Source: an uncultured Lachnospiraceae bacterium
GTDB taxonomy: Bacteria; Bacillota; Clostridia; Lachnospirales; Lachnospiraceae
Assembly: GCA_902780385.1 (NCBI GenBank)
Contig: CACZFF010000015.1
Span: forward strand, 4,802 to 68,801
Length of the DNA: 64,000 nucleotides
Reading direction: 5' to 3'
Under the pieces are notes generated by a model, which was not told the origin of the DNA, searched no databases, and saw nothing but the letters and a program-made list of their open reading frames with translations. The translations under genes and the position numbers were made by a program. Of this stretch, positions 3,757 to 49,107 are shown in pieces. Position 1 is the first letter of the stretch. Each line of letters starts with the position of its first letter.

Positions 3757-4122
3757 ATGATTTTTGTGACAGGCCCGTTGTTTGCGGGAAAACAGGAATA
3801 TATCATGGAAGCTCTCGGCTGGGATGAGTCGGATTTTGAGACCTTTGCAGTCCGGGACGTTCAGGACCTGGCAGCGGATCTGAAGACGGACCAGCTTCCT
3901 GCTCTTGCAGACAGGCTGGCAGAGAAAAAAGTTGTGATCGCGACGGAAATCGGCGGGGGTGTCGTTCCCGTTGACCCGGCAGACAGAAGAAACCGGGAAT
4001 CGGCGGGACGCCTGGCCTGCCTTCTGGCAGAGCGCGCGGACACTGTCATACGGGTGTGCTGCGGTCTTCCCCGATTCCTGAAAGGAAGGGAAGTGTTTCA
4101 GGGTTTTGACGAAGATCCCTGA
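3757..4122 (+). CDS. short CobU-like paralog with degenerate P-loop
   Basis: MIFVTGPLFAGKQ replaces GxxxxGKS. C-terminal EIGGGVVPVDP..RNRESAGRL...VCCGLPRFLKG parallels the cobU C-terminus. AGGAGA RBS before ATG 3757. Confidence 0.6.
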   Translation: MIFVTGPLFAGKQEYIMEALGWDESDFETFAVRDVQDLAADLKTDQLPALADRLAEKKVVIATEIGGGVVPVDPADRRNRESAGRLACLLAERADTVIRVCCGLPRFLKGREVFQGFDEDP

Positions 4123-4127
4123 TGGCA

Positions 4128-4268
4128 GAGGAGAGGGATCCTGTTTATAGCTAAGACTCCTGACAGGAGAGGAGAAGTATCCTGCTTATAGCTAAGATTC
4201 CTGACGGGAGAGGAGATGTATCCGGTTTATACTTAGGACTCCTGACGGGAGAGGAGATGTTTAAGGTT
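4128..4268 (+). repeat. 41-bp tandem repeat, about 3.5 copies, each with an SD-like GGAGAGGAG
   Basis: GAGAGGAGA(A/T)GTATCC(T/G)G(C/T)TTATA(G/C)(C/T)TA(A/G)GA(T/C)TCCTGACGG is repeated. The last partial copy supplies the RBS of the kinase gene at 4270. Confidence 0.85.
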
Positions 4269-4269
4269 T

Positions 4270-32877: not shown

Positions 32878-33567
32878 ATGAATAATATAAAGAATCCTGA
32901 TCAGGATGCGCAGAGCAGGGCAGAAGAACGGCGGCAGGCAGAGCGCCGTAAACGCCGTGCCAGGATGCGCGAAGAGCGGGCAAGGGCAATCCGGCGGCAG
33001 AGGATCCTGGCGGTTTTCGCGGCATTTGCCGTGATCCTCCTTATTGCCGGCGGAACACTCCTGAAGCAGAAAGCATGGGCACAGAGTTCCCTTTCCGAAA
33101 AAGTGCTTGATTACAGAGATACAGTCAAAAAATACGCCAAGAAGGAGAAGATCGAAAAATATACCGATGTTCTTCTGGCGATCATGATGGCGGAGAGCAA
33201 GGGTGAGGGCAGCGATGTCATGCAGTCCAGCGAATCCAAGGGACTGGAAAGGAATTCCCTCGAGCCCGAGGAATCGATCGAGCAGGCCTGTATCTATTTT
33301 GCCGCACTCATTGAGATAGCGAAAAATCTGGATATCAAGGATGACAAAGCCCTGATCCAGTCCTACAATTTCGGGCCGGGCTACCTGAATTACATCGCCA
33401 AGCACGGCAAGAAACACAAGGAATCCCTGGCGATCGAGTATGCAAAGGAACATTCCGGCGGTGAGAAGGTTCGATATATGCATATCTACGCCATCAAAAA
33501 GAACGGCGGCTGGATCTACAAGTTCGGAAACATGTTTTATGAGGCGATCGTAGAGGAATATATGTGA
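32878..33567 (+). CDS. lysozyme-like (CwlT N-terminal-type) family protein, membrane anchored
   Basis: Arg-rich N-terminus plus a TM segment. LLAIMMAESKGEGSDVMQSSES (catalytic Glu context), YNFGPGYLNY. Confidence 0.75.
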   Translation: MNNIKNPDQDAQSRAEERRQAERRKRRARMREERARAIRRQRILAVFAAFAVILLIAGGTLLKQKAWAQSSLSEKVLDYRDTVKKYAKKEKIEKYTDVLLAIMMAESKGEGSDVMQSSESKGLERNSLEPEESIEQACIYFAALIEIAKNLDIKDDKALIQSYNFGPGYLNYIAKHGKKHKESLAIEYAKEHSGGEKVRYMHIYAIKKNGGWIYKFGNMFYEAIVEEYM

Positions 33568-33622
33568 TCTGATATGAAAAACCTCTGAGTGCAAGCCTTG
33601 CCGGGACAAGACGTACAAAATG

Positions 33623-33672
33623 CGCGATATGTGTAAATGCGGAATATCCGCATCTGCATATATCGCGTTTTT
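33623..33672 (+). terminator. intrinsic terminator
   Basis: CGCGATAT ... ATATCGCG encloses ATGCGGA-ATA-TCCGCAT and is followed by TTTTT. Confidence 0.7.
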
Positions 33673-33865
33673 ATTGTGTGTTCTTTGAAACACTCATTGT
33701 TTAGAAGGGTTTTTTTCAGTATAATTGTATATAGATTAACAGAGAATTAACCGGAATATTATCGTTTTTTACAAGTATTCCTACGTATTCTGCGAGCCTT
33801 TTTGTGGAATCCGGACAGAAACTTGATGGACCGCAAACAATCAAATATCTAAAGGAGAGAAAAGC

Positions 33866-35209
33866 ATGAGTTATCAGGATCAGTACAGACAGAAGCTCGT
33901 GAGTGCAGCTGCTGCAGCTGCAGTCGTCAAATCCGGTGACTGGGTTGACTATGCGTGGACAGCTACGACACCCAGAGCAGTGGACAAGGAGCTGGCAAAG
34001 CGCCTTCCGGATCTCTATGATGTCAACTTCTACGGCGGAATTCTGCTGCGTGAGCCCGAGATCTTCAAGATCGAGGATCCGGCAGCACATATGACTTGGA
34101 ACAGCTGGCATATGGCCGGTTTCGAGCGCAAGGCGATTGCAAAGGGGTTCAGCTTCTATTGCCATCTGAAGTATTCCGAGCTTCCCCGCTACTATTTTGA
34201 GAATGTGAAGTCTGTCGATGTGGCGATCATGCAGGTCGGTCCCATGGATGACAAGGGTTACTTCAACCTGGGCCCCAGCGCCAGCCATGCTTACGCTGCC
34301 ATTGGGGTGGCAAAGAAGGTTATTGTCGAAGTCAACGAGAGTATGCCCATCTGTCTCGGTGACCGCAGCGCTTATATCCATATTGACGACGTCGATATGA
34401 TCGTTGAGACAGATAATGAGCCTATCTATGAATTACCGCCTGCACCCCCCGCCACAGAGATCGATCAGGCTGTTGCCAAACTTGTTGTTGAACGCATCCC
34501 GGATGGCGCATGCCTCCAGCTCGGCATCGGCGGTATGCCCAATGCCATCGGCAAGATGATCGCGGAGTCCGACCTCAAGGATCTGGGCATCCACACAGAG
34601 ATGTATGTCGATGCATTTGTCGACATGGCAGAGGCCGGCAGGATCACCGGTGCCAAAAAGAACTTCGACCGCGGTCTGCAGACCTTCGCATTCGCCGCAG
34701 GCACAAAGAAGATGTACGACTATCTCGACAATAACCCCGAGATCAAGTCCGCTTCCGTCGACTATGTCAACCACTATGACAGAGTCGCCAGGCTCGATAA
34801 TTTTATTTCCATCAACAATGCAATCGATATCGACCTTTACGGGCAGGTCAATGCGGAGAGCGCAGGCACAAGACAGATTTCCGGTGCCGGCGGTCAGCTT
34901 GACTTTGTCCTCGGCGCTTACGGCTCCAGGGGCGGCAAGACCTTCATCTGCATGTCCTCCACCTTCAAGAACAAGGACGGCAGCATTGCAAGCCGCATCC
35001 GTCCTACTCTTGCACCCGGCAGCATCGTGACCGACGCACGTCCCAACACCATGTATGTCGTGACCGAGTACGGCGCAGTCAACCTCAAGGGCCTCAGTTC
35101 CTGGCAGACCGCCGAGGCTCTGATCAGCATTGCACATCCTGATTTCCGCGACCAGCTGATCGCCGAGGCAGAGAAGATGCACATCTGGAAACGCAGCAAT
35201 AAGCGCTGA
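33866..35209 (+). CDS. acetyl-CoA hydrolase/transferase family protein (butyryl-CoA:acetate CoA-transferase-like)
   Basis: 447 aa. GDWVDY..., [38 protein letters not shown]. Confidence 0.85.
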
Positions 35210-35319
35210 TCGCGGATGGCTGACTGACAGATTCCTTGAGAGTAAGATCTTAATGACAAATCCGTCACCTGATTAATCTGATACGTTTTATCCGATATCT
35301 AGTCAATATCTAATATAAA

Positions 35320-35354
35320 AACCTCTCTCTTCTGATGAAGGGAGAGGTTTTTTG
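35320..35354 (+). terminator. intrinsic terminator
   Basis: AACCTCTCTC ... GGGAGAGGTT followed by TTTT. Confidence 0.8.
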
Positions 35355-35366
35355 AGCAAAAGTTAT

Positions 35367-35408
35367 TGTACAAATAGGGTATGTACAAAAACGAAAAGAA
35401 TGTACAAA
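35367..35408 (+). repeat. TGTACAAA direct repeat x3 upstream of the recombinase gene
   Basis: Copies at 35367, 35382 and 35401. Related TTTACAAA at 35461 and TGTACACAA at 35613. Confidence 0.6.
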
Positions 35409-35867
35409 AATCAAATTGCTTTGTTCACTTCTTGTTTTCTGTGCCGGGAAGCCTGGCTTCTTTACAAATCTGACAGAAATACCTTTTATTTTCTTAGCCC
35501 TTGTCTTTTTATGCGGGTCAGACATGATCTTGATGTGCGATATTTAGAGCGGAATAACAATGTAAAAGAGTATGGAAAAAAATTTATGCACAATTGTATA
35601 ATGCAATATGTCTGTACACAATAGTAAGAAATTTTAAACGGGAGGTGATTGATTAAACATTGTTCGAAAGCCATAGCTTCCATATAATATACGCAAAGAA
35701 TATATAACATTTAAGGTATGAGATAGCACTGCAACATCACAGGCTTTAACATTATTATCTCTGCAATGCGAGAAAAATAATACTGACGGAATTACTGCCA
35801 TGACAATACCTTATCCATTCGAGAAGCGTATATTTATACTGCCTTCAGGTTATTTATGGAGGGCATC

Positions 35868-36719
35868 ATGGAACACTGTATCGATGGAAGGACTATCGCG
35901 TTATTTACGGAAAAACTGACGGAACTTGAGAGAAGTTCCTTGACCGTGGAGAAATACGTTCGGGACGTCACGACATTCTGGAGATGGCTTGGATCAGACG
36001 GGCGCTTTGACAAAAGCAATGTGATCCGTTTCAAGCAGATGCTCCGGGAAAAATACAGGCTGAGCAGTGCAAATTCCATGCTCTCGGCACTAAATAAATT
36101 CTTTCAACTGATGGGGTGGGAGGACTGCCGGATCAGGACCTTCAAAACACAGCGCGCTTCTTTCAGAAATGAGGAGCGAGAGCTCTCCATAGAGGAATAT
36201 CGGAGACTTCTGAAAGCTGCGAAGGAAAAGGGAGATCTGCAGATCCTCAGTATCATGGAGACCATCGCTTCAACAGGAATTCGCATCAGTGAGCTTCAGT
36301 TTATTACAGTTGCTTCGGTAAGTACCAGGCGTGCACTTGTATCCCTCAAGGGAAAGACACGGCAGGTGCTGATTCCTGCGGAGTTGTGCAAAAAACTCCG
36401 CCGTTACTGCAGGGAACGGAAAATCACTTCAGGCAGCATCTTTGTTACCAGAACCGGGCGGCCTATTGACCGCAGCAACATACTTCACCGTATGAAAGCG
36501 CTTAGTGAAGATGCCAAAGTGAACCGGGAGAAGATATTCCCCCATAATTTAAGACATTTCTTCGCTGTCAATTATTACAAGACGGAAAAGGACATTGTCC
36601 GTCTCGCTGACTTACTCGGACATGCCAACATTAATACAACACGGATTTACACACTGATCAGCTGTGAGAGTCAGTTGGATATATTAGACAAAGTTGAAAA
36701 AAGCCTGCATGCAGTATAG
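35868..36719 (+). CDS. tyrosine site-specific recombinase (XerC/D-integrase family, small)
   Basis: N-terminal SAM-like core-binding region (SLTVEKYVRDV..F..WL). Catalytic region ASTGIRISEL, HNLRHFFA, LLGHANINTTRIYT. GGAGGG RBS before ATG 35868. Confidence 0.9.
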   Translation: MEHCIDGRTIALFTEKLTELERSSLTVEKYVRDVTTFWRWLGSDGRFDKSNVIRFKQMLREKYRLSSANSMLSALNKFFQLMGWEDCRIRTFKTQRASFRNEERELSIEEYRRLLKAAKEKGDLQILSIMETIASTGIRISELQFITVASVSTRRALVSLKGKTRQVLIPAELCKKLRRYCRERKITSGSIFVTRTGRPIDRSNILHRMKALSEDAKVNREKIFPHNLRHFFAVNYYKTEKDIVRLADLLGHANINTTRIYTLISCESQLDILDKVEKSLHAV

Positions 36720-36764
36720 CTGACCGTTAATTACATACACGGCCGGATTTTGAACAATAAAAAA

Positions 36765-36790
36765 TACCCCATAATTACTATTATGCGGTA
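36765..36790. repeat. recombinase core-type site L: TACCCCATA-ATTACTAT-TATGCGGTA
   Basis: 9-bp inverted arms flank an 8-bp spacer. 46 bp downstream of the recombinase stop codon. Confidence 0.7.
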
Positions 36791-37546
36791 GATGAAAACT
36801 CTTGCAGTGCATGCCCTCTTCTGCCGTCTCCGGCAGATCCGCTTCTTCGGAACATTTTACAGCTCAAGATTATTGAAATTTAAAATAGATATAGAAATTG
36901 GAATAGAGATATAGACACAAGGATATCAAAATATGCACAAAAGCGCAATCTAAATCCAATTTTCGTATCATGAGCCAATTATAAAGCCCTTTGTGTCACA
37001 ATAACCGTCAAAAGGTAAATCTATAACAGTAAAACTCTGACTTTTTTGCAGTTCGGACAGGACTGCCGCTCTTTGTGTGCCTGTTCCGGCAGCCAGACAT
37101 ACGGCCTGGCCGGGGCTCAGGTCTTGTGATCACTAAATCGATTACTAAATTATAGAAGAAACGTCTGCCCGAAAGGGCTTTTTTTTATGCCCGAAAACCA
37201 TTATCTCGTTTCTGTTCGCATAAGCTTTACCGCATAACCCTTGCCCCGGAACTCTGCCGGGATCTTTCACATCTCTTGATTACCGCATAATTATCTCCCG
37301 CCGGGATTTGTTCTGATCTTTTTTCAAAATACCTATTTCTTAAATATTTTTGCATACAACAAATAGTCCCCGCCGCCATACCCTTTCAAAAAGTACTGTC
37401 GGCTGCCGGGACTGTATTTGATTCTAATGAACATGATCAGTGAAGCCTTTCTTCCTTATATATGTAGGGCTCACCTTTACGAATGAATGCTGTCTTTGAA
37501 CGATTTGCTGTCATAACAGTTGCTGCATCAAAGGGGCAGCCCATTC
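36791..37546. promoter_or_regulatory. candidate invertible DNA segment (756 bp, ORF-free)
   Basis: Bounded by sites L and R in inverted orientation. No ORF of 60 aa or more in any frame. Contains extra half-sites TACCGCATAA (37228, 37281) and a GCCC-GAAA-GGGC-T8 terminator-like hairpin (37167-37186, + strand). Confidence 0.6.
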
Positions 37547-37572
37547 TACTGCATAATAGTAATTTTGCGGTA
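37547..37572. repeat. recombinase core-type site R: TACTGCATA-ATAGTAAT-TTTGCGGTA
   Basis: The spacer is the exact reverse complement of the site L spacer. 23/26 identity to site L after reverse complementing. Confidence 0.7.
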
Positions 37573-37699
37573 AACAGCAGAGCGGCAGAAAACCCTTCAG
37601 GATTTTCGGACTGCCTGGTGAGTTATAGAACTGTCCATGTGAGTATTCTGTTTGACTACGGAATTAACCACAAGTGTGAGAAAAGAGGAAGTGGCTAAA

Positions 37700-40600
37700 T
37701 TGAAACATTCAGATTATCTCAAAAAGAAAAAAACCAGAGAGACCAGAAAGAAGATTATTTCCGTGATTTCGGCAATAGTCGTTTTCATCACGACTTATGC
37801 CCTGGTGCTTCCTGCTATCACACTGGATGTTTCCAGAGCCAGCCGGGAGCCGGGCATCGCATTTGAGCAGATGCAGTTCAAGGCGACTGCTTCTGCCGCC
37901 TCTGTGACCGCGGCGGACAGCACTGTGGAAGAGGTGCAGGTGGAAGAACCTGCCGCCGAGGAAGCTGCAGAGGAAGAGGCTATAAAGGAAGAAGCTGCTG
38001 AGATCCCCGAAGAAGAGACCTCGGCTGTTTCTGATGAGAATGAGAAAGAAGAAGCGGAGCAGGTTGTAGAAGAAGCTCCGGCCGAGTCTGCACGGGAAGA
38101 AGCTCCCGCCGCAGAGGCTGAAGAGGTTCAGGAAGAGGAAGATAAGAGCGCAGAAGAAAAGGCTGATGCAGAGCCTTCGTCTGAGCCTGCCCAGGAGGAA
38201 GCTCAGACTGCCGAGACACAGAAGTCTGCAGACCAGGCTGCTGTTGACCAGTCCGGTAAATCCGGCACCCAGGCGACAGAGGCAGCTGCAGCTGCCTCAA
38301 CAGAAGAAACAGCTGCGGAGTTCCAGATTCCCACACTTGATCCCATTGACTTCGATGAGATCCTCACAGGCAAGACAGACTTCTATTTTTACCATGTAGA
38401 AAAAACAAAAGAGGATGAGAACATCACTTCCGATTCAGTTGATGACTGGAAGAAGGTTGGTTCTGATACTGTCCTTGCTCCGGAAGATTTCGTTCGCGTC
38501 TATCTTTCCTATGAGATCCCTGCAGGCTCTCTCAACGAGACCAATGCGGAAGCACGCTACAGGCTGCCCGCAGGCCTGGAACTGAGTGACAAGCAGATCA
38601 AGGATATCAATAAATATGAGAACGGCATCGCCGCCTCCAAATCCGGCAGCGAGCACGACAAATATCTCGGCGCGGAAGCTATTGAAGGCAGCCGCACCCC
38701 CAACGAGAAAGCAGGCGACGAATATATCTCCGCGACTGTTAAGGCAGAGAAGGTCTACAAGGATGGCGAATATGTTGGCCAGGATCTGATCTTCACCTTC
38801 ATTCCCTACACCGTCGAGAAGAACCAGATCTCCTATGACGAGGCGGGTAAACTGACCTCGGAAGGAAGGAATGTCAAAGGGTTCTTCACTTTTGATCTGA
38901 CAACTGCACAGATTGATTTCGAGAAGACTGAAAAGGAGACCGTTGAGAAAGAAGACGGCACAAAAGAAGAAATCCAGTACAGCAGAGCGGAAGTTGTATT
39001 CGTAAAAGAAAACAATAAGAAGAATATTGACGAGATCAGCCGCATTCTCACTATGGCTGGTCCTTCTGAGAAGGAAGAGCCTCAGGTACAGGAGCCGAAG
39101 ACTCTGATTAGTAAGGGTGAGGGCAATGACTATACTGTCACTGTGTCCTATACCGATGACGCACAGATCCCGGATAACGCAGAACTTGCAGTCCGTGAGA
39201 TTGAAAAAGATACCGACGAATACGCATCCTACCTCGAGCAGGCAAAGGGTGCTGTTGACGAGAACAAATCTGTCAACGAGGCGAGATTCTTTGACATTAC
39301 TATCGTGGCTGACGGCGAGAAGATCGAACCTCAGGCTCCGGTAAACGTACAGATCACCTTTACAGGCATCGAGCAGACCAATACAGATGATACACAGCTT
39401 CTCCACTATAAAGACGATAAAGAGGTTGAGGTCATGGATCAGGCTGAGTTCAGTAAGTCTGAAGAGCCTGAGAACGAGACAAAGGCGGTTGACACCGTCC
39501 AGTTCGAGACGGACGGATTCTCTGTGTACGGTATTGTGGGAACGGAGACGATTGAGACTACCGTACTGACTGCAGATGGCGAGACGTATAAAATCACTGT
39601 CAACTACACAAAGGAAGCAGAAATCCCGAGCGGTTCAGAATTAGTTGTTCGCGAGATTCTCCGCGGCACTCCGGAATATGATGATTACAGAGCGCAGACG
39701 CAGGATGCTTTGGGTACAAGCGATGTTCCGATTGCAGAAATGGAGAACAGTGATGAGACTGCAGTAGAAGAAACTGCTTTCGATGAAACAATTGCGGACA
39801 CAACGAATCCTGTTACATATCAGGTTGTAGGAAATGCCCAGTCTGAACTGACCTTTATCCGTCTGTTCGATATCAGCATCATGAATGGTGAAGAAGAGGT
39901 TGAGCCGAAGGTTCCGGTAGAGGTTGTGATCACCTATGTGGAGCCGGTGAAGATAAATGATGGAAGCAAGCTGGATATTGTTCACTTTGCTGAAGATGGA
40001 GTTGAAGTTTTTGATGAAGTTATTGTAAGTGAAGATGGAACAGAGATCAAATATGAGGCTGAAAGTTTCTCTGTTTATGGAACAGCTCAGAGTGCTGTTG
40101 GGGCAGGAGATTACATTATCTATAGGGATGGGAGTCAAAATGATTATGCACTGAATTATAACAATGGAACTCTCGGAAGACAGTCTGTAAGTATTTCCGG
40201 GGGACAAGTGTATTCTGCGCAAGATAATGTGGTCTGGACCTTTACAGCGGTGACCGGTGGCTATAGGTTAAGTTATCAGGTTGGAAATACAACATATTAT
40301 CTTCGCAATAACAATGGGACTCTTACTACAACGACTAATGTAAATCAGGCTTCTACGTGGACTTATAACAACAGAAGGCTTACTAGCGGGAATCGTTCGT
40401 TAAGATATGATAGTGGGTCATTTTCATTAAACAGCAGTGGAAGCGATATTTATCTTGCAAAAATAGCAGCTCCGGCGACCATTACCATTCACTATGTGGA
40501 TGAATCTGGTACAGAAATACTTGAGTCTCAAATACTTCCAGACAGCACATCAAGTGGCGTAACTGCAATACGTGACATCGTTGCAACTAAGGCAGGTTAT

Positions 40601-43600
40601 ACATACCACAACACATACCTTACCAGTACTTCTGGGACACAGATCGTTCCTGAACTGCGTGGTGCAGGTGGCGGACAATGGGAATATCAGGTCTACGGAC
40701 AGCAGGCATATACACAGTTCAGCGGGGATACTGACATCTATGTAGTATATGGCGATGCATATGGCGGTGGTTCCGGAGGATCCGGAGGAGGTGGTGGAGA
40801 TGATGATCTTCATATTGATACCCCCACTGCAGGAAAAGTTGTTAGAGGCAATACAGACGGAACATTTACATTATCACTTTCTATCACAGGTGAAGGCGAT
40901 CAGGGAGACAGCAGTAAAGGTGCAAATGTTATCGTTATACTGGATACGTCTAACAGTATGGATGGAAATGTCAGTACAGGTGGTACACGTTTCAGCAATG
41001 CAGTAAGTGCAGCGCAAAATGTATCATCAAACTTGCTTGGAATGAACACGGAAGAGAATCCCGAGCTTGTTGAGATGTGCTTAGTTGAATTCAATAAAGA
41101 TGTAGTAACAAGTGGATGGTATACAGAAGCAGGAACTGCAAGTGCGCAGGGGACATATCCCACAGGTACATTTAACAGAAAAATTGCAGATGCATCCAGA
41201 AATTCCGGTACAAACTGGGAGGGTGCTCTTCAGGCGGCAATTACAGCTGCTAATGGCCATAACGATGGAGATGATACATATATCATTTTCCTGACTGACG
41301 GTAATCCAAGCACAAATGCTACAAAAACTTCCCGTTATGATAACGAGGCTAATACAAACACTAGCAGTCCATACTATTATAGACTTTCCGATAACTATAT
41401 GTGTGCAACAGACGAAGCACGTCAGATCGTACAAAATGGATGGAATTTCTACTCTGTTGGCATGTATGGAAACGTTGATGTTCTGAGGTATCTGACAAAC
41501 TTTGCATACTATGGACGTAGCGTCAACCAGACAGAGAATAAAGATACGCAGGGAACATATTATTATCCAGCATCTGAAACCAGCACTTTGATTGCTGCCT
41601 TAAATGATATTGCAGATGTAATTTCTAACAGCTTGGCGCTTGCAGGTGTTGATTTTAAAGATGGTATCGGTCAGGATGTTACGCATCATTCACTTAGTAC
41701 AAATGTCAGTGGTTCATTGGGAGGCGTAACATACACCAAGTCGGGAGGTACGACAGGCAGTTATAGTGTAACAGTAGATAAAGACGGTAATGCAACATTT
41801 ACTGTTGGAACGACATCTGTTCCAGGAACCATAACGACAAAAAGTTATAAAAAAATCGTTGATGTTGAAGGCGGTGATCCGACAGAGCAGGACGCAAGTG
41901 CTGAGGTTTATACGGCGACAGTAAATGGCACAACTTATTATATGCCGATTGCGACATTGTCAAATGCTGAGACAGATGAGGGTGATTTTGAGTGGGATCT
42001 TTCTCCACTCGGGACACTTGAGAAAAATGCGACCTATACTGTCAGCTTCAAAGTATGGCCGGATCAGGATGCTTATGACTACGTAACCAATCTGAATAAC
42101 GGAATCAGCGGATATTCATGGGATTATGAAAATGAAGTAGAAGTGAAGAATCCAAGTGGCTCTACTGCTTACTATACTGACGGAGTGTCACAGTATCCGA
42201 ATATTGTACGTTATCCGAATGATACATTTGCTGCAATGTCAAATACCTATCAGACGGTAGATTACTACATTGCAAATACAGAAACGAGCGGTGATGAAAC
42301 ATCAACGACTTATGAGAAAGGCGAACCGATTGCCCTTGATATTCCGGATCCGATGAATCTGGTTAGCTCCAGTTTCAGCGTGAGAAAGTCATGGTCTGAC
42401 AGCCTAGATACATCACAGTTAGATAAGCTGATTGCAGATGCGGAAGCAGAAGGAAAAGTATATGGCGTTACTTTAAATCTTCTGGAAGATGGCGAGTTCT
42501 ATAAGGCATATATATTTACTCCGGTAAAGAACACAGAGACTGGAAAATATGAATGGCCTGCACAGACAATCAATATTGCCCCGGCATTACTTACAACAAC
42601 GTATCCGGGAGGCGGAACATATAATACCGTAACAATTGACGGCGACACTTATTATGTTCTCAATAATGGACATCAGTACATTCTGGAGGAAACCAATACA
42701 GATTCTCACTTCGAGTTCAATACAATCTTGTACCATCCAGCACTGGTGAACGGCGTATTGAAGAACGTAGAGTTCGACGTTGATGAACACGGCAATATTG
42801 TAAATGGCTCCACAGGTACAGTTGTCGGGACTGTTCCACTTGTCGAGTTTGAAGGTGAGAATACCCTTCGAGGCGGCATTAACATCTATAAAAAAGTGGT
42901 TGAGGAAGACGATACTGAAGTCGAAGACAATACAGATGTATTTGATGCTGAAGTTACTTTGACAGTTCCGATGAAAGATGGACAGCCTGATTTCTCTCAT
43001 GTTGAAAACTATTACGATACAGATAACGTTACAGTGCTTATCCCAAGCGTAGCTTGGTATAGGTACTATGACGAAAATAATAATGTAGTTTACGATGATG
43101 CGTTGATCGATGCAGGTATTCTTGAGGATTCCGGACAGACTTCAGAGTATGGAAGAATTGGTCAAGGTGAAAACTACGATGGAAGTGGATGGTTCTATCT
43201 TGACTTTAACGACACAACCGGAACGGTAACCGGAACTGTTAAAATTACACCACAGTATACTTTGCGTTTCACAAATATGGCTGCCGGGACTACCTACGAT
43301 CTTACTGAAACAGATACACAGGGTATGCAGCCCACTTATGAGTTCTGGCATGACAATGCTGAGTCGAATGAGAAAATTGTTATTGGTAATGCTGGAAACA
43401 ATATTCGTGTGACCAACAAAATCGTTAACCGTAAGGTGATCGTCTATAAGACAGATGACAATGCCACATCACCAAAGGCACTTGCAGATGCAGTGTTTAC
43501 GATTAATGGCGAGACCTTAACATCAGGTCAGGATGGTTACACCGAAGTAATTGAACTTCCGACAAGTAATACTCCATATGACTTGATAGAGACTGAAGCT

Positions 43601-43873
43601 CCGGCAGGTTACAACAAACTGACTGAAGCGGTAAAAGTAACAGTTTCATCCAGTGGTGTTACTTATCAGCAAGGCATGGGACAGCCGCAGACAGCAGAAA
43701 AAGATGCTGATGGGAATTATGTAGTTCATGTTACGAATAACTCTGGCTATGAACTCCCGAATACCGGCGGCTCTGGTACATTACCTTATACATTAGGCGG
43801 TATCGCCCTTATCATGGCATCCGCTTTGATGTACGGCTTCAGGATGAGGCGTAGAGAAAGGAGGTTAAACTAA
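37700..43873 (+). CDS. giant LPXTG-anchored multidomain adhesin (pilus-tip-like; vWA/MIDAS, MucBP-like, lectin-like, Cna-B/SpaA-type domains)
   Basis: N-terminal Lys-rich region plus TM signal. Glu/Ala-rich acidic region. MIDAS DTSNSM...GTNWEGAL...FLTDGNPS (about 40.9-41.3 kb). ITIHYVDESGTEI is MucBP-like. E-box YDLIETEAPAGY. LPNTG at 43754-43768, then TM and RMRRRERR. TTG 37700 is preferred over the track start 37652. Confidence 0.9.
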   Translation: MKHSDYLKKKKTRETRKKIISVISAIVVFITTYALVLPAITLDVSRASREPGIAFEQMQFKATASAASVTAADSTVEEVQVEEPAAEEAAEEEAIKEEAAEIPEEETSAVSDENEKEEAEQVVEEAPAESAREEAPAAEAEEVQEEEDKSAEEKADAEPSSEPAQEEAQTAETQKSADQAAVDQSGKSGTQATEAAAAASTEETAAEFQIPTLDPIDFDEILTGKTDFYFYHVEKTKEDENITSDSVDDWKKVGSDTVLAPEDFVRVYLSYEIPAGSLNETNAEARYRLPAGLELSDKQIKDINKYENGIAASKSGSEHDKYLGAEAIEGSRTPNEKAGDEYISATVKAEKVYKDGEYVGQDLIFTFIPYTVEKNQISYDEAGKLTSEGRNVKGFFTFDLTTAQIDFEKTEKETVEKEDGTKEEIQYSRAEVVFVKENNKKNIDEISRILTMAGPSEKEEPQVQEPKTLISKGEGNDYTVTVSYTDDAQIPDNAELAVREIEKDTDEYASYLEQAKGAVDENKSVNEARFFDITIVADGEKIEPQAPVNVQITFTGIEQTNTDDTQLLHYKDDKEVEVMDQAEFSKSEEPENETKAVDTVQFETDGFSVYGIVGTETIETTVLTADGETYKITVNYTKEAEIPSGSELVVREILRGTPEYDDYRAQTQDALGTSDVPIAEMENSDETAVEETAFDETIADTTNPVTYQVVGNAQSELTFIRLFDISIMNGEEEVEPKVPVEVVITYVEPVKINDGSKLDIVHFAEDGVEVFDEVIVSEDGTEIKYEAESFSVYGTAQSAVGAGDYIIYRDGSQNDYALNYNNGTLGRQSVSISGGQVYSAQDNVVWTFTAVTGGYRLSYQVGNTTYYLRNNNGTLTTTTNVNQASTWTYNNRRLTSGNRSLRYDSGSFSLNSSGSDIYLAKIAAPATITIHYVDESGTEILESQILPDSTSSGVTAIRDIVATKAGYTYHNTYLTSTSGTQIVPELRGAGGGQWEYQVYGQQAYTQFSGDTDIYVVYGDAYGGGSGGSGGGGGDDDLHIDTPTAGKVVRGNTDGTFTLSLSITGEGDQGDSSKGANVIVILDTSNSMDGNVSTGGTRFSNAVSAAQNVSSNLLGMNTEENPELVEMCLVEFNKDVVTSGWYTEAGTASAQGTYPTGTFNRKIADASRNSGTNWEGALQAAITAANGHNDGDDTYIIFLTDGNPSTNATKTSRYDNEANTNTSSPYYYRLSDNYMCATDEARQIVQNGWNFYSVGMYGNVDVLRYLTNFAYYGRSVNQTENKDTQGTYYYPASETSTLIAALNDIADVISNSLALAGVDFKDGIGQDVTHHSLSTNVSGSLGGVTYTKSGGTTGSYSVTVDKDGNATFTVGTTSVPGTITTKSYKKIVDVEGGDPTEQDASAEVYTATVNGTTYYMPIATLSNAETDEGDFEWDLSPLGTLEKNATYTVSFKVWPDQDAYDYVTNLNNGISGYSWDYENEVEVKNPSGSTAYYTDGVSQYPNIVRYPNDTFAAMSNTYQTVDYYIANTETSGDETSTTYEKGEPIALDIPDPMNLVSSSFSVRKSWSDSLDTSQLDKLIADAEAEGKVYGVTLNLLEDGEFYKAYIFTPVKNTETGKYEWPAQTINIAPALLTTTYPGGGTYNTVTIDGDTYYVLNNGHQYILEETNTDSHFEFNTILYHPALVNGVLKNVEFDVDEHGNIVNGSTGTVVGTVPLVEFEGENTLRGGINIYKKVVEEDDTEVEDNTDVFDAEVTLTVPMKDGQPDFSHVENYYDTDNVTVLIPSVAWYRYYDENNNVVYDDALIDAGILEDSGQTSEYGRIGQGENYDGSGWFYLDFNDTTGTVTGTVKITPQYTLRFTNMAAGTTYDLTETDTQGMQPTYEFWHDNAESNEKIVIGNAGNNIRVTNKIVNRKVIVYKTDDNATSPKALADAVFTINGETLTSGQDGYTEVIELPTSNTPYDLIETEAPAGYNKLTEAVKVTVSSSGVTYQQGMGQPQTAEKDADGNYVVHVTNNSGYELPNTGGSGTLPYTLGGIALIMASALMYGFRMRRRERRLN

Positions 43874-44084: not shown

Positions 44085-45605
44085 ATGAAGAAAATGAAAA
44101 AGATCTTCGCTCTGCTGATTGCCATGGTCGTATTCGCTGCAAGCATTACAATCACTCACGATGAAGACACCTATGATGCCAATACAGATTCCGCTGCCCG
44201 TGTTTACCAGGCATATAAGATTTTCGATGCTGTTTATGATGATCTCGCAGGTGAGAATACCCAGGATGATAAAGATGCTTTCTCATATGATCCTGATGAT
44301 GCAGCAGTTGCTTACACCATGGCAACAGACAGCCCCTGGGTGGATGTCATGACTGATGATGAGCAGACATGGTTTGATGTAAAGCTGTCTGCTGATGGAA
44401 GTGTCTATGTTGTAACTGCAAAGGATAGTTATGCAACTTCTGCTGATGCTAAAGATTTTGCTGAGTATCTGCAGGAGAACATGCCGGATGACGCAGCTTC
44501 CACTGAGGTTACAGTAGACGGTGCTGCAGCTGAAGTTGATCCCGGTTATTACCTGATTGTTGCTAAAGATACAAAAGATGGTGTTACAAGACTTGCGCTT
44601 GTTACCACAGATGTGGAGATGGTAGAAAAGAACACCTACATCACTGTTGGTAAGACAACTGCCAGAACCAGCTATAGTGTTGGTGATCTGATTGAGTACA
44701 CAGTTACTGTTAATATTCCTGATGATACAGCTCTGACTCAGACCGATGATAATGGTGACTATGTTGCAGGACACGGCCCGATCATCCTTCACGATATTCT
44801 TGACAGCCGCCTGACTTTCCAGGGAGAGATGAAGACTGCCTCCATTGGTGATGATGAGTATGAACTTGTTTGGACCGAGGATACTGCCGCAGCTAACCAC
44901 ACAACTAATCAGGATGATGGCTGCACCTTTGAGCTTATTATCCCTGTTACTGAGGATCTTCTTGACGAAACTGTAACCTTCACTTATGAAGCAGAGGTCA
45001 ACAGCACTGCAGCGACTGACACTGGTCTTGTGAACGAACTTGGTGGCGAGATCAATGGTTATAAGACTGTTCCCGAAAAGCCGGAAGTTTATACATTTGA
45101 CTTCGATTTTATCAAATTATTTGATGATGAAGAAGATGAAGAGCTGACAGCAACATTTGAGCTTCGTACAGATGCTGATGATGAGACTACTGCCATTTCC
45201 TTTATCACGGATGCTAATGGAAATTATATCAAGGCGGACAGTGACGATGCAAATGCGAATACAACCATTACCATGACAAATGGTAACCAGCTCAATTTCC
45301 TTGGATTTGAAGCAGGGACATATTACCTGGTCGAGCTTACAACAAGTACTGGTTATAACCTGCTGGATGGCCCGGTTACTGTTAATATCGAAGATACTTC
45401 TACAGATACTGTAATCAGTCATGAAGTGACTTACATTGTTAATGGTGAGGAAGCAGAGGGTGTTGTAACTGTAGAGAACCATAGTGGTACAGTTCTTCCT
45501 TCCACCGGTGGCATCGGTACCACAATTTTCTACATCATTGGTGCAATCCTTGTAGTTGGTGCTGGCGTTGTTCTGGTAACCCGCCGTCGTATGAACGCTA
45601 ACTAA
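44085..45605 (+). CDS. LPXTG-anchored isopeptide-type pilin/surface protein
   Basis: Signal peptide. E-box-like YYLVELTTSTGY. LPSTG at 45495-45509, then TM and TRRRMNAN. Confidence 0.85.
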   Translation: MKKMKKIFALLIAMVVFAASITITHDEDTYDANTDSAARVYQAYKIFDAVYDDLAGENTQDDKDAFSYDPDDAAVAYTMATDSPWVDVMTDDEQTWFDVKLSADGSVYVVTAKDSYATSADAKDFAEYLQENMPDDAASTEVTVDGAAAEVDPGYYLIVAKDTKDGVTRLALVTTDVEMVEKNTYITVGKTTARTSYSVGDLIEYTVTVNIPDDTALTQTDDNGDYVAGHGPIILHDILDSRLTFQGEMKTASIGDDEYELVWTEDTAAANHTTNQDDGCTFELIIPVTEDLLDETVTFTYEAEVNSTAATDTGLVNELGGEINGYKTVPEKPEVYTFDFDFIKLFDDEEDEELTATFELRTDADDETTAISFITDANGNYIKADSDDANANTTITMTNGNQLNFLGFEAGTYYLVELTTSTGYNLLDGPVTVNIEDTSTDTVISHEVTYIVNGEEAEGVVTVENHSGTVLPSTGGIGTTIFYIIGAILVVGAGVVLVTRRRMNAN

Positions 45606-45690
45606 GTAGAAGTAACCTACTAAAAAACAGTGGTATGAAATAGGTCAATCACCTGATCAAACCAAAACAAATTAAAAAATGAACCCCATC

Positions 45691-45724
45691 AAAAAAGGGA
45701 GCGGAGGCCACGGCCTCTGCTCCC
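45691..45724 (-). terminator. terminator hairpin (U-run only on the minus strand; probably also stops the + strand pilin transcript)
   Basis: GGGAGCGGAGGCC / GGCCTCTGCTCCC, preceded on the + strand by AAAAAA. Confidence 0.6.
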
Positions 45725-45857
45725 CGGGGAAATCATTTACCTACACAATCATATAGCATAAACCGGAATCAAAACGACAGGTTTAACATTCAATCCAAGT
45801 TTGGTTCCTACAACAGCAACTTGACAACTTTTATTTTTGAGGATCTCGATTCGGGAA

Positions 45858-46544
45858 TTAAGGAAAGAGCTGTTTCTTTCTGATCCACTTCAGATAATTC
45901 TTTTTGAAGTCACGAATCGAGTTGAAGAATTCAAGTTCGGATTTGCTAAAGGCTCTTTGTTCAGCTTTAATTGCCAATAGTTCTAATGTGCAGATCATAT
46001 CAGCGATTTGGAACAGGCGATAATCAACTGGAAGCACCTTTCTGTATTCCACAGACAAAAAGTGAGAACTGAACACAGATGTAATGATCTTTGTTAACTG
46101 AGTCTGACCGTTATCGTAATAGATGATGATTTTATCAAAACTGTCAAAATAACATTTGCTCCGGTCGAGTATTTCGCCGAACTTCCTGGAGATACGAGCT
46201 GTAAGAGTGATTTCATCCGGGCAATCATGCTTTTCAATTTGGATGCAATCATAATAGAGTGGCATCTTACGAGCGAAGTTGAACAGAGCTGAGAAAAGGC
46301 GTTTGCGTACTTCGGGTCGTTCATTCGCATAATCTGCTTCACGACGAACCAGAGGACCTGTGTGCAGAGCATGTTTGCCATAACCATGATAGTCAAGATG
46401 CGTCTCAAAAGAAGATAGATTCTGAGAGATATCATTCGATTGGTCGTGGTAAACGAGTGCAACGAGATAATATGGAGCATGTGGCTCATATGTTCCAAAG
46501 TCACCGGATTCATCAATAAAAATACTGAGAGTCTTGGTAGACAT
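45858..46544 (-). CDS. DUF3800 domain protein
   Basis: N-terminal LSIFIDESGDFG, the hallmark of DUF3800. 228 aa. AAGGAG RBS. Confidence 0.85.
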   Translation of the reverse strand: MSTKTLSIFIDESGDFGTYEPHAPYYLVALVYHDQSNDISQNLSSFETHLDYHGYGKHALHTGPLVRREADYANERPEVRKRLFSALFNFARKMPLYYDCIQIEKHDCPDEITLTARISRKFGEILDRSKCYFDSFDKIIIYYDNGQTQLTKIITSVFSSHFLSVEYRKVLPVDYRLFQIADMICTLELLAIKAEQRAFSKSELEFFNSIRDFKKNYLKWIRKKQLFP

Positions 46545-46646
46545 TCTTCAATCTCCTTAAAAAATAAAAGTGGCGGGGAAATTCCCCGCCGATCGGTGGG
46601 ACCAGGGTCTTACGACCAGCCCCATAAGGTGTCTAGCACCATTTGT
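46545..46646 (-). ncRNA. structured 5' leader of the DUF3800 gene with an intrinsic terminator (candidate DUF3800-associated RNA motif / attenuator)
   Basis: Read on the minus strand: GGTG-CTAGA-CACC; then GGGGCTGGTC-GTAA-GACC-CT-GGTCCC; then GGCGGGGAA-T-TTCCCCGCC + ACTTTTATTTTTT; then AAGGAG and ATG. Confidence 0.55.
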
Positions 46647-46652
46647 ACTAAT

Positions 46653-46681
46653 ATTATAACTATTGGACAGACTCTTGTCAA
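46653..46681 (-). promoter_or_regulatory. consensus sigA promoter TTGACA-17-TATAAT driving the DUF3800 leader
   Basis: On the minus strand, TTGACA is at 46681-46676 and TATAAT at 46658-46653. Confidence 0.75.
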
Positions 46682-46807
46682 GGTGTAAAGTAATATTACT
46701 TGACGCGCACTTTTGAGTTTTGTTCCGACAACTGGAAAAGCTAATAATCATGATGCGAGCGGTCATGAAGTTGGTACAAATCAAGTTGGTTATGATTTCG
46801 TAATTGA

Positions 46808-47203
46808 CATCAACAGTCTTGCTCTTGCAGTATGTCCCCTCTGATCCGGTATAAAAAAGATTATGTGACAATTATTCCCCTTGAAGCTCCTCCTGTTTCG
46901 GGGGATATTGTTCTATTTGCAGATTTTACCAGGGACAGGTATGTAATGCACCGTGTCTGGAAGGTCAGGAAAGGGGAAGCGCTGACCTGGGGAGACAACT
47001 GTGACCGTACGGACGGATGGATCCCTCTGGATAAAATCTGGGGTAAGGCCTTGCAGGTTGAAAGGGGCAGGAAGACGATTCAAATGAATGCTCGAAAAGG
47101 ACTTCTCTGGGCGTCTTTCTGGCATAAGGCGGGCAGGGTTTACCGCTTTGTGTTCCGCATTAAAAAAGCTGTTCTCAGGCGTATGAAGCAAATAGTCTTT
47201 TGA
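46808..47203 (+). pseudogene. 5'-truncated S24/S26 (signal-peptidase/LexA-like) peptidase fragment
   Basis: The frame opens only 8 codons before the ATG (stop-HQQSCSCS-MSPLIRY). The SM(S)P nucleophile motif therefore sits at the extreme N-terminus with no preceding segment. Downstream GDIVLF...YVMHRV...WGDNC is family-like. Confidence 0.5.
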
Positions 47204-47735
47204 AATGGGTACCGGGTTCCGGCAAGAGTGTTTATGAGCGGAACAGCGAACAGATGGTAGATGGATGAATTTCTGTATCATGAATCATGGAGGGGTGTTG
47301 CATTACTATAAAATTGCCGAAGTGGTTTTGAAGTCCGTATACTCTTTGCCGTCTTTTTCTGCTTTCGCTTGTGAGTGCGGGACGGCAGATGTGGAATTGG
47401 GCATGACGCAGGAATTGCCGCTGCCGGGCACCGATCAGGAAGCCTGGAGGAGTGTCCATCAACAGGCGGTTGACTGGGCAGAAGGGTCTGCCTGCCTCGG
47501 CCGTCTGACCGCCGGGGGAGCACCTGAAATAAACGTTAATCTGCCAACCGAAAGAGCCTCGGCGCGAGGCCGGGGCTCCCGGGTATTTGATAATTATTCC
47601 GATCATTTGATCAGATTGTCTTTCGACATCAATCCGGGAAATGATCATTTGAACAGTTTTCTCATCCTCCGGGACGCTATATACCTGACAATGCTGAACA
47701 TTGATACTGCTGGATTATAAGACGGAAGGAAAACA

Positions 47736-48644
47736 ATGAGTAAAAAGATGGACCTTACAGGGATGCGGTTTGGAAAGCTGACGGCTCTCGAACCTACAAA
47801 TGAGAGAAAAAACGGCTACACTGTTTGGCTTTGCAGGTGTGACTGCGGTAATACTGTGCATGCGGCGTCGCGCTTTCTTAAAAATGGCTGGATGACTTCC
47901 TGTGGGTGCGTGGAAAAAAAGCCGCGATATGAAGACCTGACCGGAAAACGTTTTGGAAAACTTCAGGTCCTTTCGATAGCACCGGATCGGGATATCCACG
48001 GCCGTATACAGTGGAACTGTGTCTGCGACTGCGGGAACAGAATCGTTGCGCCTGCCGGCCAGCTGGTGAATGGTTACAGGCGCAGCTGCGGATGTCTCAG
48101 CCGCCCGCCTCTCAAGGACTGGATCGGAAAACAATTCGGGGAACTGACGGTGACCGCCTATGACGGAAAACGTGACAAAAAACACTACTGGAAATGCAAG
48201 TGCAGCTGTGGGAATGAGACAAGCGTCTGTCAGTCCAGCCTCATGAGCGGACATACTACCAGCTGCGGCTGCCGCAATACGCCTTTCGCAGCCAAGCACT
48301 TCATCGAGGGGACCTGCGTGGAGAATATCCGCAGCAGGCGGATTGCCAAAAACAATACCAGCGGTGTCCGCGGCGTCTACAAATCAGAACGCAGCGGCAA
48401 GTGGTGTGCACAGATTACCTTCCAGGGAAGGACCCGTTACCTGGGCAGTTTTTTCACACTGGAGGAGGCAGCCGAGGCGCGCAAAAAAGGAGAGCAGCTA
48501 TTTGACGAGTTCCTTGCGCGTTTCGACATGGCACATCCCGAACAAAAGAACGGAAAGATTCCGCCGGAAGAGATCCGCACAGAGACCAAACACATCGTAC
48601 ACATTTTGCATTCGGATTCGGATGCAAGGAAGATTCCTGTATGA
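47736..48644 (+). CDS. AP2/ERF-domain DNA-binding protein with four Cys-rich repeats
   Basis: Four copies of G.RFGKL.V...W.C.CDCGN......L..G...SCGC. This is followed by NTSGVRGVYKSERSGKWCAQITFQGRTRYLGSFFTLEEAAEARKKGE, an AP2 fold signature. Confidence 0.8.
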   Translation: MSKKMDLTGMRFGKLTALEPTNERKNGYTVWLCRCDCGNTVHAASRFLKNGWMTSCGCVEKKPRYEDLTGKRFGKLQVLSIAPDRDIHGRIQWNCVCDCGNRIVAPAGQLVNGYRRSCGCLSRPPLKDWIGKQFGELTVTAYDGKRDKKHYWKCKCSCGNETSVCQSSLMSGHTTSCGCRNTPFAAKHFIEGTCVENIRSRRIAKNNTSGVRGVYKSERSGKWCAQITFQGRTRYLGSFFTLEEAAEARKKGEQLFDEFLARFDMAHPEQKNGKIPPEEIRTETKHIVHILHSDSDARKIPV

Positions 48645-48791
48645 ATATTGTTTACTGAACACAAACGTAGAAAAGGCAGGGCGTCAGCCCTGCCTTGCTT
48701 CATGATATTCATATGATATTCATCCGCTATTGCGGGAAAGATGTTTCCTGCAGCAGAACGGTCTTGTGAATGCGCTGCTATGACCAGCGGA

Positions 48792-48932
48792 TCAATCCAG
48801 ATCCTTGTCAACCTTCAGGACAGCGCCGGTAAGGGGATCGATGTCATATTCATATTCGATACCGTTATGGAGGAACTCCACCTCATAGACCAGGCCTCCA
48901 TCCTCACGATCAATCTTTGTTATAGTTAACAT
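48792..48932 (-). CDS. PepSY-like mini-ORF (46 aa), possibly a gene remnant
   Basis: MLTITKIDREDGGLVYEVEFLHNGIEYEYDIDPLTGAVLKVDKDLD resembles the C-terminal half of a PepSY domain. No SD; the ATG overlaps TGGTATAAT. Confidence 0.3.
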   Translation of the reverse strand: MLTITKIDREDGGLVYEVEFLHNGIEYEYDIDPLTGAVLKVDKDLD

Positions 48933-49107
48933 TATACCATTTTTTTGTCACAAAAGAGTCACACAAAACAACCGTCTCTGTCCCGTCACCTGGAAGACCG
49001 GAGGTTGTTTTTTTGGCTAGCTTTTGTGCAGGAGAGCGTTTCATGGTATAATTATCAAAATTTTGATACGTGAATAGTAAAATAAACAGATAATCGGGAG
49101 GGGCTCC

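Follow-up and report, generated by a model that had tools for sequence, protein, structure and literature searches.

Between the gene for a small tyrosine recombinase and the gene for a giant LPXTG adhesin, the 64,000-nt stretch of Lachnospiraceae DNA analysed here (hereafter the window) contains 756 bp of non-coding DNA framed by two inverted, dif-like sites. This arrangement raises the question whether the recombinase inverts the segment in nature and, if so, how its orientation would bear on the genes behind it. Sortase-dependent pili and large vWA adhesins decide the attachment of gut and rumen Firmicutes to mucus, fibre and other cells, and a heritable ON/OFF switch in front of pilus genes would mean that metagenome-assembled genomes (MAGs) of butyrate-producing Lachnospiraceae conceal phenotypic subpopulations. 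We find the segment inverted between the predicted sites in a natural contig, and we consider it very probable that the element is a programmed inverton. A fuller explanation, in which a recombinase-driven inversion switch carries a promoter and a terminator, controls the pilus genes and is OFF in the window, is likely too, if held with a little less assurance. The parts of the locus concerned are the following:

35868-36719, + strand: Xer-like tyrosine recombinase, presumed invertase; 283 aa; Pfam Phage_integrase (6.4e-27) and Phage_int_SAM_1
36765-36790, no strand assigned: core site L (IRL)
36791-37546, no strand assigned: invertible non-coding segment, 756 bp; inverted relative to collinear flanks in contig L117
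37547-37572, no strand assigned: core site R (IRR)
37700-43873, + strand: LPXTG surface protein of pilus tip adhesin type, presumed regulated gene; 2,057 aa; VWA and SpaA/Cna-B-type domains
44085-45605, + strand: SpaH/EbpB-type LPXTG major pilin, presumably co-transcribed; 506 aa; Pfam Gram_pos_anchor, SpaA and GramPos_pilinBB; NCBIfam NF033902 and TIGR04226

Paired core sites and the adjoining recombinase

Site L reads TACCCCATA-ATTACTAT-TATGCGGTA, with the arms TACCCCATA(AT) and (AT)TATGCGGTA flanking the asymmetric centre TACT, and site R reads TACTGCATA-ATAGTAAT-TTTGCGGTA, with the arms TACTGCATA(AT) and (AT)TTTGCGGTA and the centre AGTA, inverted with respect to L. A first-pass annotation, made from the sequence alone, had proposed these two sites, and its coordinates, arms and spacers were borne out by a direct sequence check, as were the match of 23 of 26 positions between L and reverse-complemented R and the exact reverse complementarity of the spacers ATTACTAT and ATAGTAAT. 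Each site is also near-palindromic on its own. In a repeat search the full inverted repeat extends to 28 nt (36765-36792 / 37545-37572, 25 of 28 complementary, 752 nt between the arms) and exceeds every other inverted repeat of the region in length. With as many as three mismatches allowed, a consensus 26-mer matches the 64-kb window at L and R only and is absent from 100 dinucleotide-preserving shuffles of the window. The earlier statement that the segment has no open reading frame (ORF) of 60 aa or more holds for ORFs lying wholly inside; a 50-aa ORF (37227-37379, minus strand) is contained in the segment and a 71-aa ORF (37483-37698) crosses site R. As expected of an inverton, two inverted repeats thus surround a short non-coding segment beside a gene.

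The neighbour expected of an inverton, a site-specific recombinase with intact catalytic residues, is present as well. Its start codon (ATG, 35868) is preceded by GGAGGG and its ORF ends at 36719, which agrees with the small tyrosine recombinase previously placed just upstream of L; the gap to L measures 45 nt. Residues R139, K163, H226, R229, H252 and Y261 are invariant across 17 recombinase homologues and show XerD-like spacing. The best NCBIfam matches are XerA, XerD and XerC, all below their cut-offs (139 vs 220, 123 vs 330 and 115 vs 335, respectively), and the closest solved structures are those of XerD, XerA and XerH. The FimB/FimE-type models (NCBIfam NF007370 and NF007371) require 221 and 222 bits, respectively, and the recombinase scores 30.0 and 21.4.

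Orthologous loci and a natural inversion

Orthologous contigs were collected by exact-protein look-ups with the window recombinase and with P0013, P0014, P0001, P0015 and P0016 (variants 92-98% identical). The names of the samples holding the locus (PRJEB21624, 'STEW18/19') suggest rumen metagenomes. Of the 46 orthologous contigs in which both sites occur in the window's form, 45 match at all 26 positions of each site and the remaining one has a single change; site L is 26/26 identical in every orthologous contig with the window orientation. In a sister lineage, the DNA around the sites is only 80-85% identical, whereas the sites are kept together with their imperfections, which points to strong purifying selection on them. 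In L031, whose recombinase is 84% identical, a compensatory change occurs in the spacers, ATTACTAT becoming ATGACTAT in L and ATAGTAAT becoming ATAGTCAT in R. More distant loci (L032-L035, recombinase 59% identical, other upstream genes) again show a recombinase, two sites with matched but different centres, and then pilin genes. The core sites are therefore conserved in orthologous loci and their spacers co-vary.

The inverted orientation of the sites, from which inversion had been predicted, allows the flipped allele to be written down in advance: its left junction should read TACCCCATA-ATTACTAT-TATGCAGTA and continue with the reverse complement of what now stands before R. An exact search of a metagenome collection for the predicted junction CCCCATAATTACTATTATGCAGTAGAAT returned one contig, L117. 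The flanks of this contig are collinear with the window (34392-36792 at 90% and 37545-37720 at 98% identity), and the segment between the sites lies on the opposite strand, 94-98% identical. Its site L has exchanged its inner arm for that of R, and its site R has exchanged its inner arm for that of L (TACCGCATA). The junctions, TACCCCATAATTACTAT-TATGCAGTA and TACCGCATA-ATAGTAATTTTGCGGTA, match an exchange inside the spacer, and the right one, which reads TACCGCATA-ATAGTAAT-TTTGCGGTA, is the reciprocal hybrid. Collinear flanks, an inverted segment and reciprocal hybrid junctions together indicate that inversion occurs in nature at the predicted sites. Both orientations thus exist, with breakpoints inside the repeats, as judged by a comparison between strains, and the comparison of orthologous loci suggested in the first-pass annotation has yielded the flipped segment with the predicted hybrid junctions. 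Its view of the element as an inverton worked by the adjoining tyrosine recombinase through lox/dif-like sites, at pilus/adhesin genes, is supported by L117, by site conservation and by spacer co-variation.

A separate anomaly occurs in L036, a contig from the same locus as L032. The two are identical up to position 6384, inside the segment, after which the last 53 nt of L036 (6384-6437) diverge and end in ...GTGCCCATAATTACT, which resembles a half-site. We considered this end as a flipped junction and rejected it, since no part of L032 matches it when reverse-complemented; a further rearrangement or a chimeric end of the contig could account for it.

A Clostridial family of recombinase-linked invertons

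A profile search of species-representative genomes with the recombinase yielded 80 loci with 45-59% identity over about 260-275 residues, hosted by Lachnospiraceae, Oscillospiraceae and other Clostridia; this genome collection contains no genome of the window's species, its best match to the window recombinase being 59% identical. At E <= 1e-20, homologues number 7,997 database proteins. A site pair of the form xxCxxCATAAT-NNNN-ATTATGxxGxx is carried by 59 of the 80 loci and begins 19-84 bp past the recombinase match (median 59 bp; 45 bp from the stop codon in the window). The four central bases are reverse-complementary between the paired sites in 59/59 loci, with 38 different centres, none of them palindromic. 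The arms were imposed by the search pattern, whereas the relation between the centres was not. The window, with TACT and AGTA, fits this rule. The switch reading of the first-pass annotation stands as far as the inverton is concerned, but membership of a large Clostridial family had been overlooked.

Segments of the family are typically 152-422 bp long (median 235) and usually carry a strong TTGACA-17-TATAAT promoter near one end, firing outwards, which faces the recombinase in about three quarters of the genomes and the downstream gene in about one quarter. The downstream genes are diverse and include TetR regulators, S26 signal peptidases, YpsA, capsule genes, and SLH and Listeria-Bacteroides-repeat surface proteins. 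Two contigs of one locus, L062 and L069 (97-99% identical), have a 247-bp segment in opposite orientations. At least five paralogous modules occur in Hungatella hathewayi WAL-18680 (L058, L071, L075, L084 and L089), with the centres ATAC, AACT, ATCC, AAGT and GAGT, a pattern consistent with a role of the central tetranucleotide in preventing cross-recombination between paralogous switches of the same genome. The window segment departs from the family norm, both in length (756 bp vs about 235) and in its best promoter match (8-9 of 12 positions). Together with that of L031 (866 bp), it is one of the two longest of the 59 segments; L117 and L131 have segments of 1018 and 918 bp, and only the subgroup of the window lineage, L031, L117 and L131 has such long ones.

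These data bear on two explanations that do without a switch. In the first, the flip in L117 is a one-off rearrangement between short inverted repeats, or an assembly artefact, and the palindromes are operators for a DNA-binding protein. Such a view accommodates the single flipped contig, the otherwise uniform orientation, and the fact that each site is itself palindromic, as operators are. A 28-nt imperfect repeat, on the other hand, is a poor substrate for homologous recombination, and the breakpoints in L117 fall exactly at the site centres, with reciprocal arm exchange. Operators, moreover, need no reverse-complementary relation between their centres, and that relation is found in every paired locus, without a palindromic centre among the 38. 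The compensatory spacer change in L031, the second flipped pair L062/L069, the catalytically intact recombinase that always adjoins the sites, and read-supported flipping in what is probably the identical family (PMC11892184) argue in the same direction, and we regard this explanation as very improbable.

In the second, the repeats are the ends of a non-autonomous mobile element, either a miniature inverted-repeat transposable element (MITE) or a remnant of an insertion sequence (IS), or the attachment sites of a Xer-exploiting element, and there is no regulatory switch. The 28-nt terminal inverted repeats around a non-coding segment of 0.75 kb and the dif-like character of the sites would be compatible with it. 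Yet the site is found nowhere else in the window, there is no target-site duplication (flanks AAAAAA / AACAGC), excision is impossible from inverted sites, the placement relative to the recombinase stop codon is fixed in about 60 distant loci, and the segment is conserved and syntenic in all orthologues. We give this explanation hardly any credence and retain the programmed inverton.

Some family members show additional peculiarities. Three or four full core sites sharing one centre are present in a few of them: L055, L061, L063 and L094 have two R-type sites 33 bp apart, and L070, L079 and L068 have two L-type sites. Such sets would permit alternative inversions or deletions, and hence more than two states. 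L039 (1372 bp, from a MAG labelled Blautia sp.) has a 57-nt terminal inverted duplication that includes a core site, with the recombinase gene between the copies; either the recombinase lies within an invertible segment or an assembly-graph artefact formed at the repeat. L076, from a MAG labelled Bacteroides thetaiotaomicron, holds a family recombinase (50% identity) and the core site CACCCCATAATGTATATTATGAGGTA, reflecting either horizontal transfer or a binning error; the linked recombinase group has also been mentioned in Bacteroidia (PMC11892184).

Putative promoter, terminator and state of the switch

A conservation profile of 22 orthologous sequences is variable apart from four conserved islands: both core sites with their immediate flanks, 36920-37015, a hairpin with T8 and A-tract at 37151-37190, and two half-sites. 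The corresponding features of the segment are:

36920-36948, - strand: putative switch promoter; TTGCGC (36948-36943), 17 nt, TGaTATCCT (-10 hexamer 36925-36920); points to the recombinase gene in the window
36949-37015, no strand assigned: highly conserved block behind the putative promoter, 67 bp; nearly all columns invariant across lineages
37151-37190, + strand: intrinsic-terminator-like hairpin; GCCC-GAAA-GGGC (37167-37178) and T8 (37179-37186), with an A-tract upstream
37228-37237, + strand: accessory half-site 1, TTTACCGCATAA; exact 10-mer with the polarity of R's inner arm
37281-37290, + strand: accessory half-site 2, TTACCGCATAAT; 53 bp after half-site 1

The minus-strand candidate is the sole promoter-like site in the segment in which both hexamers are about 99% conserved, and L031 has an equivalent at the same place (TTGCGT-17-TATCAT). 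In L117, where it is carried by the + strand, the putative promoter is directed at the adhesin and stands 129 nt short of the segment's right end. We propose this extended -10 element as the switch promoter. A consensus promoter/terminator scan found four promoters where six were expected, none of them convincing, which agrees with the earlier failure to see a convincing sigA promoter; the conserved extended -10 candidate at 36920-36948 had nevertheless been overlooked. The GCCC-GAAA-GGGC stem-loop followed by T8 at 37167-37186 on the + strand, which the same annotation had recorded, was confirmed. Together with the A-tract it folds to -12.3 kcal/mol (z = -3.1), and it is kept in all lineages including L031, on the + strand in every unflipped locus and on the minus strand in L117. 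A search of 33000-39000 for known RNA families gave sub-threshold chance matches only (rli33, 19.6 bits vs a gathering score of 46; SCARNA18).

The block behind the putative promoter is near-invariant across lineages that differ by 15-20% elsewhere. Within it lie a TGTGACACA motif and, on the minus strand, a TATAAT (36979-36984) that lacks a usable -35; the block could be a regulator binding site.

In the mechanism that we propose, the 283-aa recombinase would bind both dif-like sites, in each of which an asymmetric centre separates two inverted TACCGCATAA(T)-type arms, and strand exchange within the central region would flip the 756 bp. In the window state, transcription from the promoter would run leftwards and enter the recombinase gene at its 3' end, and the + strand terminator would halt read-through from that gene. 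Inversion would bring the promoter to about 280 nt before the adhesin start codon, from where it would drive the pilus genes (ON); an effect of orientation on adhesin transcription is what these elements lead us to infer. The direction of the promoter towards the recombinase gene and the block to read-through by the + strand terminator would leave the tip-adhesin and pilin genes OFF in the window, a call that also fits the family, where OFF is the commoner state in the reference genomes. We lean towards the OFF state for the window, as the more probable of its two states. More speculatively, the promoter in the OFF state would make antisense RNA across the recombinase gene, providing orientation-dependent feedback on the invertase.

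Several observations weigh against this account. All 49 informative look-up contigs show the window's orientation, and the sole flipped contig, L117, belongs to a different strain (recombinase 97.9% identical) and came from a targeted junction search. The putative promoter is weak, matching the consensus at 8 of 12 positions (TTGCGC / TATCCT) plus TG. The terminator stem has only four G-C pairs, which explains its omission from the consensus scan, and the pairing of its upstream A-tract with the downstream T8 makes it symmetrical, such that it may be bidirectional and may stop minus-strand transcripts too, if weakly. The role of the adjoining recombinase as the invertase is presumed. No sortase gene was found beside the pilin genes (44085-50553; Pfam, NCBIfam and PDB searches); the pilus-specific sortase must be encoded elsewhere. 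Finally, a + strand promoter candidate, TTCACA-17-AATTAT (37266-37294), would reverse the assignment of ON and OFF.

This candidate, or CTTTCA-16-CATAAT, both of which overlap half-site 2, would in that case drive the adhesin from the right-hand part of the segment, the inverton being the same but the window showing its ON state, with the terminator as a mere insulator against read-through coming from the recombinase gene. No other site in the segment comes closer to the consensus than TTCACA-17-AATTAT (9 of 12 positions), which sits downstream of the terminator, and the uniform orientation of the 49 unselected contigs could mean that pili are normally expressed. Its -35, however, is poorly conserved (0.52), and the conservation of its -10 is accounted for by the half-site itself, whereas the fully conserved promoter-like element is the minus-strand one. 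The family promoter, near one end and facing the recombinase in about three quarters of the reference genomes, again indicates OFF as the majority state. We thus consider an ON state driven by these + strand candidates improbable, although less so than the two explanations without a switch, and keep the minus-strand element as the putative switch promoter.

Half-site array

The extra half-sites noticed previously inside the segment are present, with exact copies of TACCGCATAA at 37228 and 37281 and a degenerate TTCGCATAA at 37215, but their array phasing and the variation in their copy number had been missed. The half-sites recur as phased direct repeats every 52-56 bp, oriented like R's inner arm; a phasing of 52-53 bp corresponds to about five helical turns. 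Across the 22 orthologous sequences, half-site 1 is conserved while its flanks vary. Two copies are found in the window lineage, three in the sister lineage, four in L031 and six in each of L117 and L131, where Tandem Repeats Finder (TRF) reports tandem units of 52 and 53 bp; in the window, the array units have diverged except for the half-site. Such arrays are absent from the short family members, and a distance of at least about 260 bp separates the half-sites from the nearest core site.

Speculatively, the array may bind extra recombinase subunits, thereby shaping the synapse or tuning the bias in direction or the rate of switching. If this is true, changes in copy number would act as a heritable rheostat of switching, and the array would offer a handle on the control of direction and frequency by a tyrosine invertase that has neither host-factor sites nor an arm-binding domain. 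That the pilus-linked subgroup is a compound switch, in which the half-site scaffold serves as a copy-number rheostat and antisense RNA feeds back on the invertase, set within a Clostridial radiation of Xer-derived invertases with private centres, is a tentative idea that we rate as less likely true than false.

Comparison with known systems

The closest published relative is Clostridia inverton group 139 with tyrosine recombinase invertase group 35, identified with PhaseFinderDC in the hCom2 community, which has repeats of up to 26 bp and a segment of about 205 bp, a tyrosine recombinase beside nearly every inverton, and read-supported flipping that shifts with culture passage and surface attachment (PMC11892184). 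These groups are probably the same family as the one described here, as compared by geometry and host class alone. Group 139 resembles the family norm in its Clostridia hosts, its 26-bp repeats and its segment length (about 205-230 bp vs a median of 235 bp), whereas the window element is three times longer, lacks a strong sigma-70-type promoter, and has a terminator and a half-site array. The repeat motif and the coordinates do not occur in the text or text supplements of PMC11892184.

The label 'lox/dif-like' given earlier to the sites is apt, as the family shares its core, CATAA-TNNNNA-TTATG, with E. coli dif (GGTGCGCATAA-TGTATA-TTATGTTAAAT, a string confirmed in published papers), and the best sequence and structure matches of the recombinase are Xer proteins. 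The dif-like core and the Xer-like protein suggest that the invertases derive from Xer recombinases. XerA, XerH and XerS act as single recombinases on near-symmetric arms, and one recombinase would act on near-symmetric arms here as well. Unlike Xer/dif, the recombinase misses the Xer equivalog cut-offs widely, two inverted sites lie beside the recombinase gene instead of one at the replication terminus, a genome can carry many paralogous modules (at least five in Hungatella hathewayi), and the outcome is inversion instead of dimer resolution.

The fimS switch of E. coli type 1 fimbriae (FimB/FimE) has a tyrosine recombinase beside an invertible promoter segment that sets an adhesive fibre operon ON or OFF, the arrangement proposed here. 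Orientational control of fimE rests on an upstream, co-directional recombinase gene whose transcript meets the switch. The window recombinase gene is also upstream of and co-directional with its switch, and the proposed antisense RNA would be a counterpart of orientational control. The present system differs in having one recombinase instead of two, outside the FimB/FimE family (NF007370, 30 bits vs 221), repeats that are dif-like palindromes of 26-28 bp instead of 9 bp, and sortase-dependent Gram-positive pili instead of chaperone-usher fimbriae.

Among Clostridia, the RecV switches (cwpV, flgB, cmrRST) are similar in that a tyrosine recombinase inverts short segments upstream of surface or motility genes. 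In cwpV of Clostridioides difficile, control is exerted after transcription initiation via an orientation-dependent terminator (PMC2784873, PMC5903667), to which the terminator-like hairpin here is comparable. RecV, however, serves several unlinked switches in trans, and their repeats differ, whereas here each switch has its own adjoining recombinase and its own centre. In Streptococcus zooepidemicus, SZO08560 encodes an LPXTG surface protein with an adjoining recombinase gene and an invertible promoter, as documented by sequencing reads and reverse-transcription quantitative PCR (PMC2654543). It shares with the window a Gram-positive LPXTG surface protein linked to a recombinase-associated invertible segment, but its repeats are 10 bp long (GTAGACTTTA) and unrelated in sequence, its segment is about 115 bp, and its target is a single surface protein instead of pilin genes.

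For the half-site array, whose binding by the recombinase is putative, the best precedent is TnpI/IRS of Tn4430, in which a tyrosine recombinase without a separate arm-binding domain uses DR1-DR2, copies of its own motif placed as direct repeats beside the core, to shape the synapse and impose directionality (PMC2847244). The TnpI system differs in carrying out resolution instead of inversion, and its two motifs adjoin the core, whereas two to six half-sites are phased here at 52-53 bp, at the distance from the core sites given above.

Literature searches with the site strings returned coincidental primer matches only, and the DeepInverton paper mentions neither Clostridia nor pilins. Tyrosine recombinases beside invertons are a familiar finding, and an earlier sighting of the family is probable (PMC11892184). 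We found no description in the literature of the dif-like site rule with private centres, of the link to sortase-dependent pilus genes in Lachnospiraceae, or of the compound architecture of the subgroup, which combines a long segment with a terminator and a half-site array of variable copy number. The family rule connects these switches to dif/Xer ancestry and provides a search rule for Clostridia, namely a Xer-like recombinase followed within 19-84 bp by a CATAAT-N4-ATTATG pair with reverse-complementary centres.

Neighbouring genes

The adhesin of about 2,060 aa that had been placed some 130 bp past the segment proved to have 2,057 aa and to begin 127 nt after R, most likely at TTG 37700 behind AGAGGAAG; the mechanical ORF begins at 37652. 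Its Pfam domains are VWA, VWA_2, SpaA and DUF7604, and it has an LPXTG anchor (TIGR01167) and a SpaH/EbpB-type C-terminus. The N-terminal part (37928-38400) is encoded by degenerate, 15-nt-phased acidic repeats rich in Glu, Ala and Pro. Several Logan contigs break at 38405, and full-length gene calls range from 1,954 to 2,062 aa between strains, which suggests that the repeat region is probably length-polymorphic.

Upstream of the recombinase is a gene for butyryl-CoA:acetate CoA-transferase; one member of the 90%-identity cluster of this protein bears the label 'Lachnospiraceae bacterium', on which the taxonomic placement is based. The genes after the pilin encode a DUF3800 protein on the opposite strand (45858-46544), a 151-aa ORF product, an AP2-like protein and an AgcS-type amino-acid carrier. 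As a candidate for the missing sortase, we examined the 302-aa ORF at 47736-48644 (+ strand) and rejected it, as it has no Pfam, NCBIfam or PDB match and, by eye, combines three zinc-ribbon-like repeats (CxCxCG...SCGC) with a C-terminal DNA-binding domain of AP2-like type. This AP2-like protein recurs at pilus loci: L031 has a copy with 83% identity immediately upstream of its recombinase (3801-4709), and a 314-aa protein with a weak AP2 match lies between pilin and adhesin in L032 (9184-10128). The 302-aa protein may be a regulator of the pilus locus, which could explain the weak -35 of the putative switch promoter.

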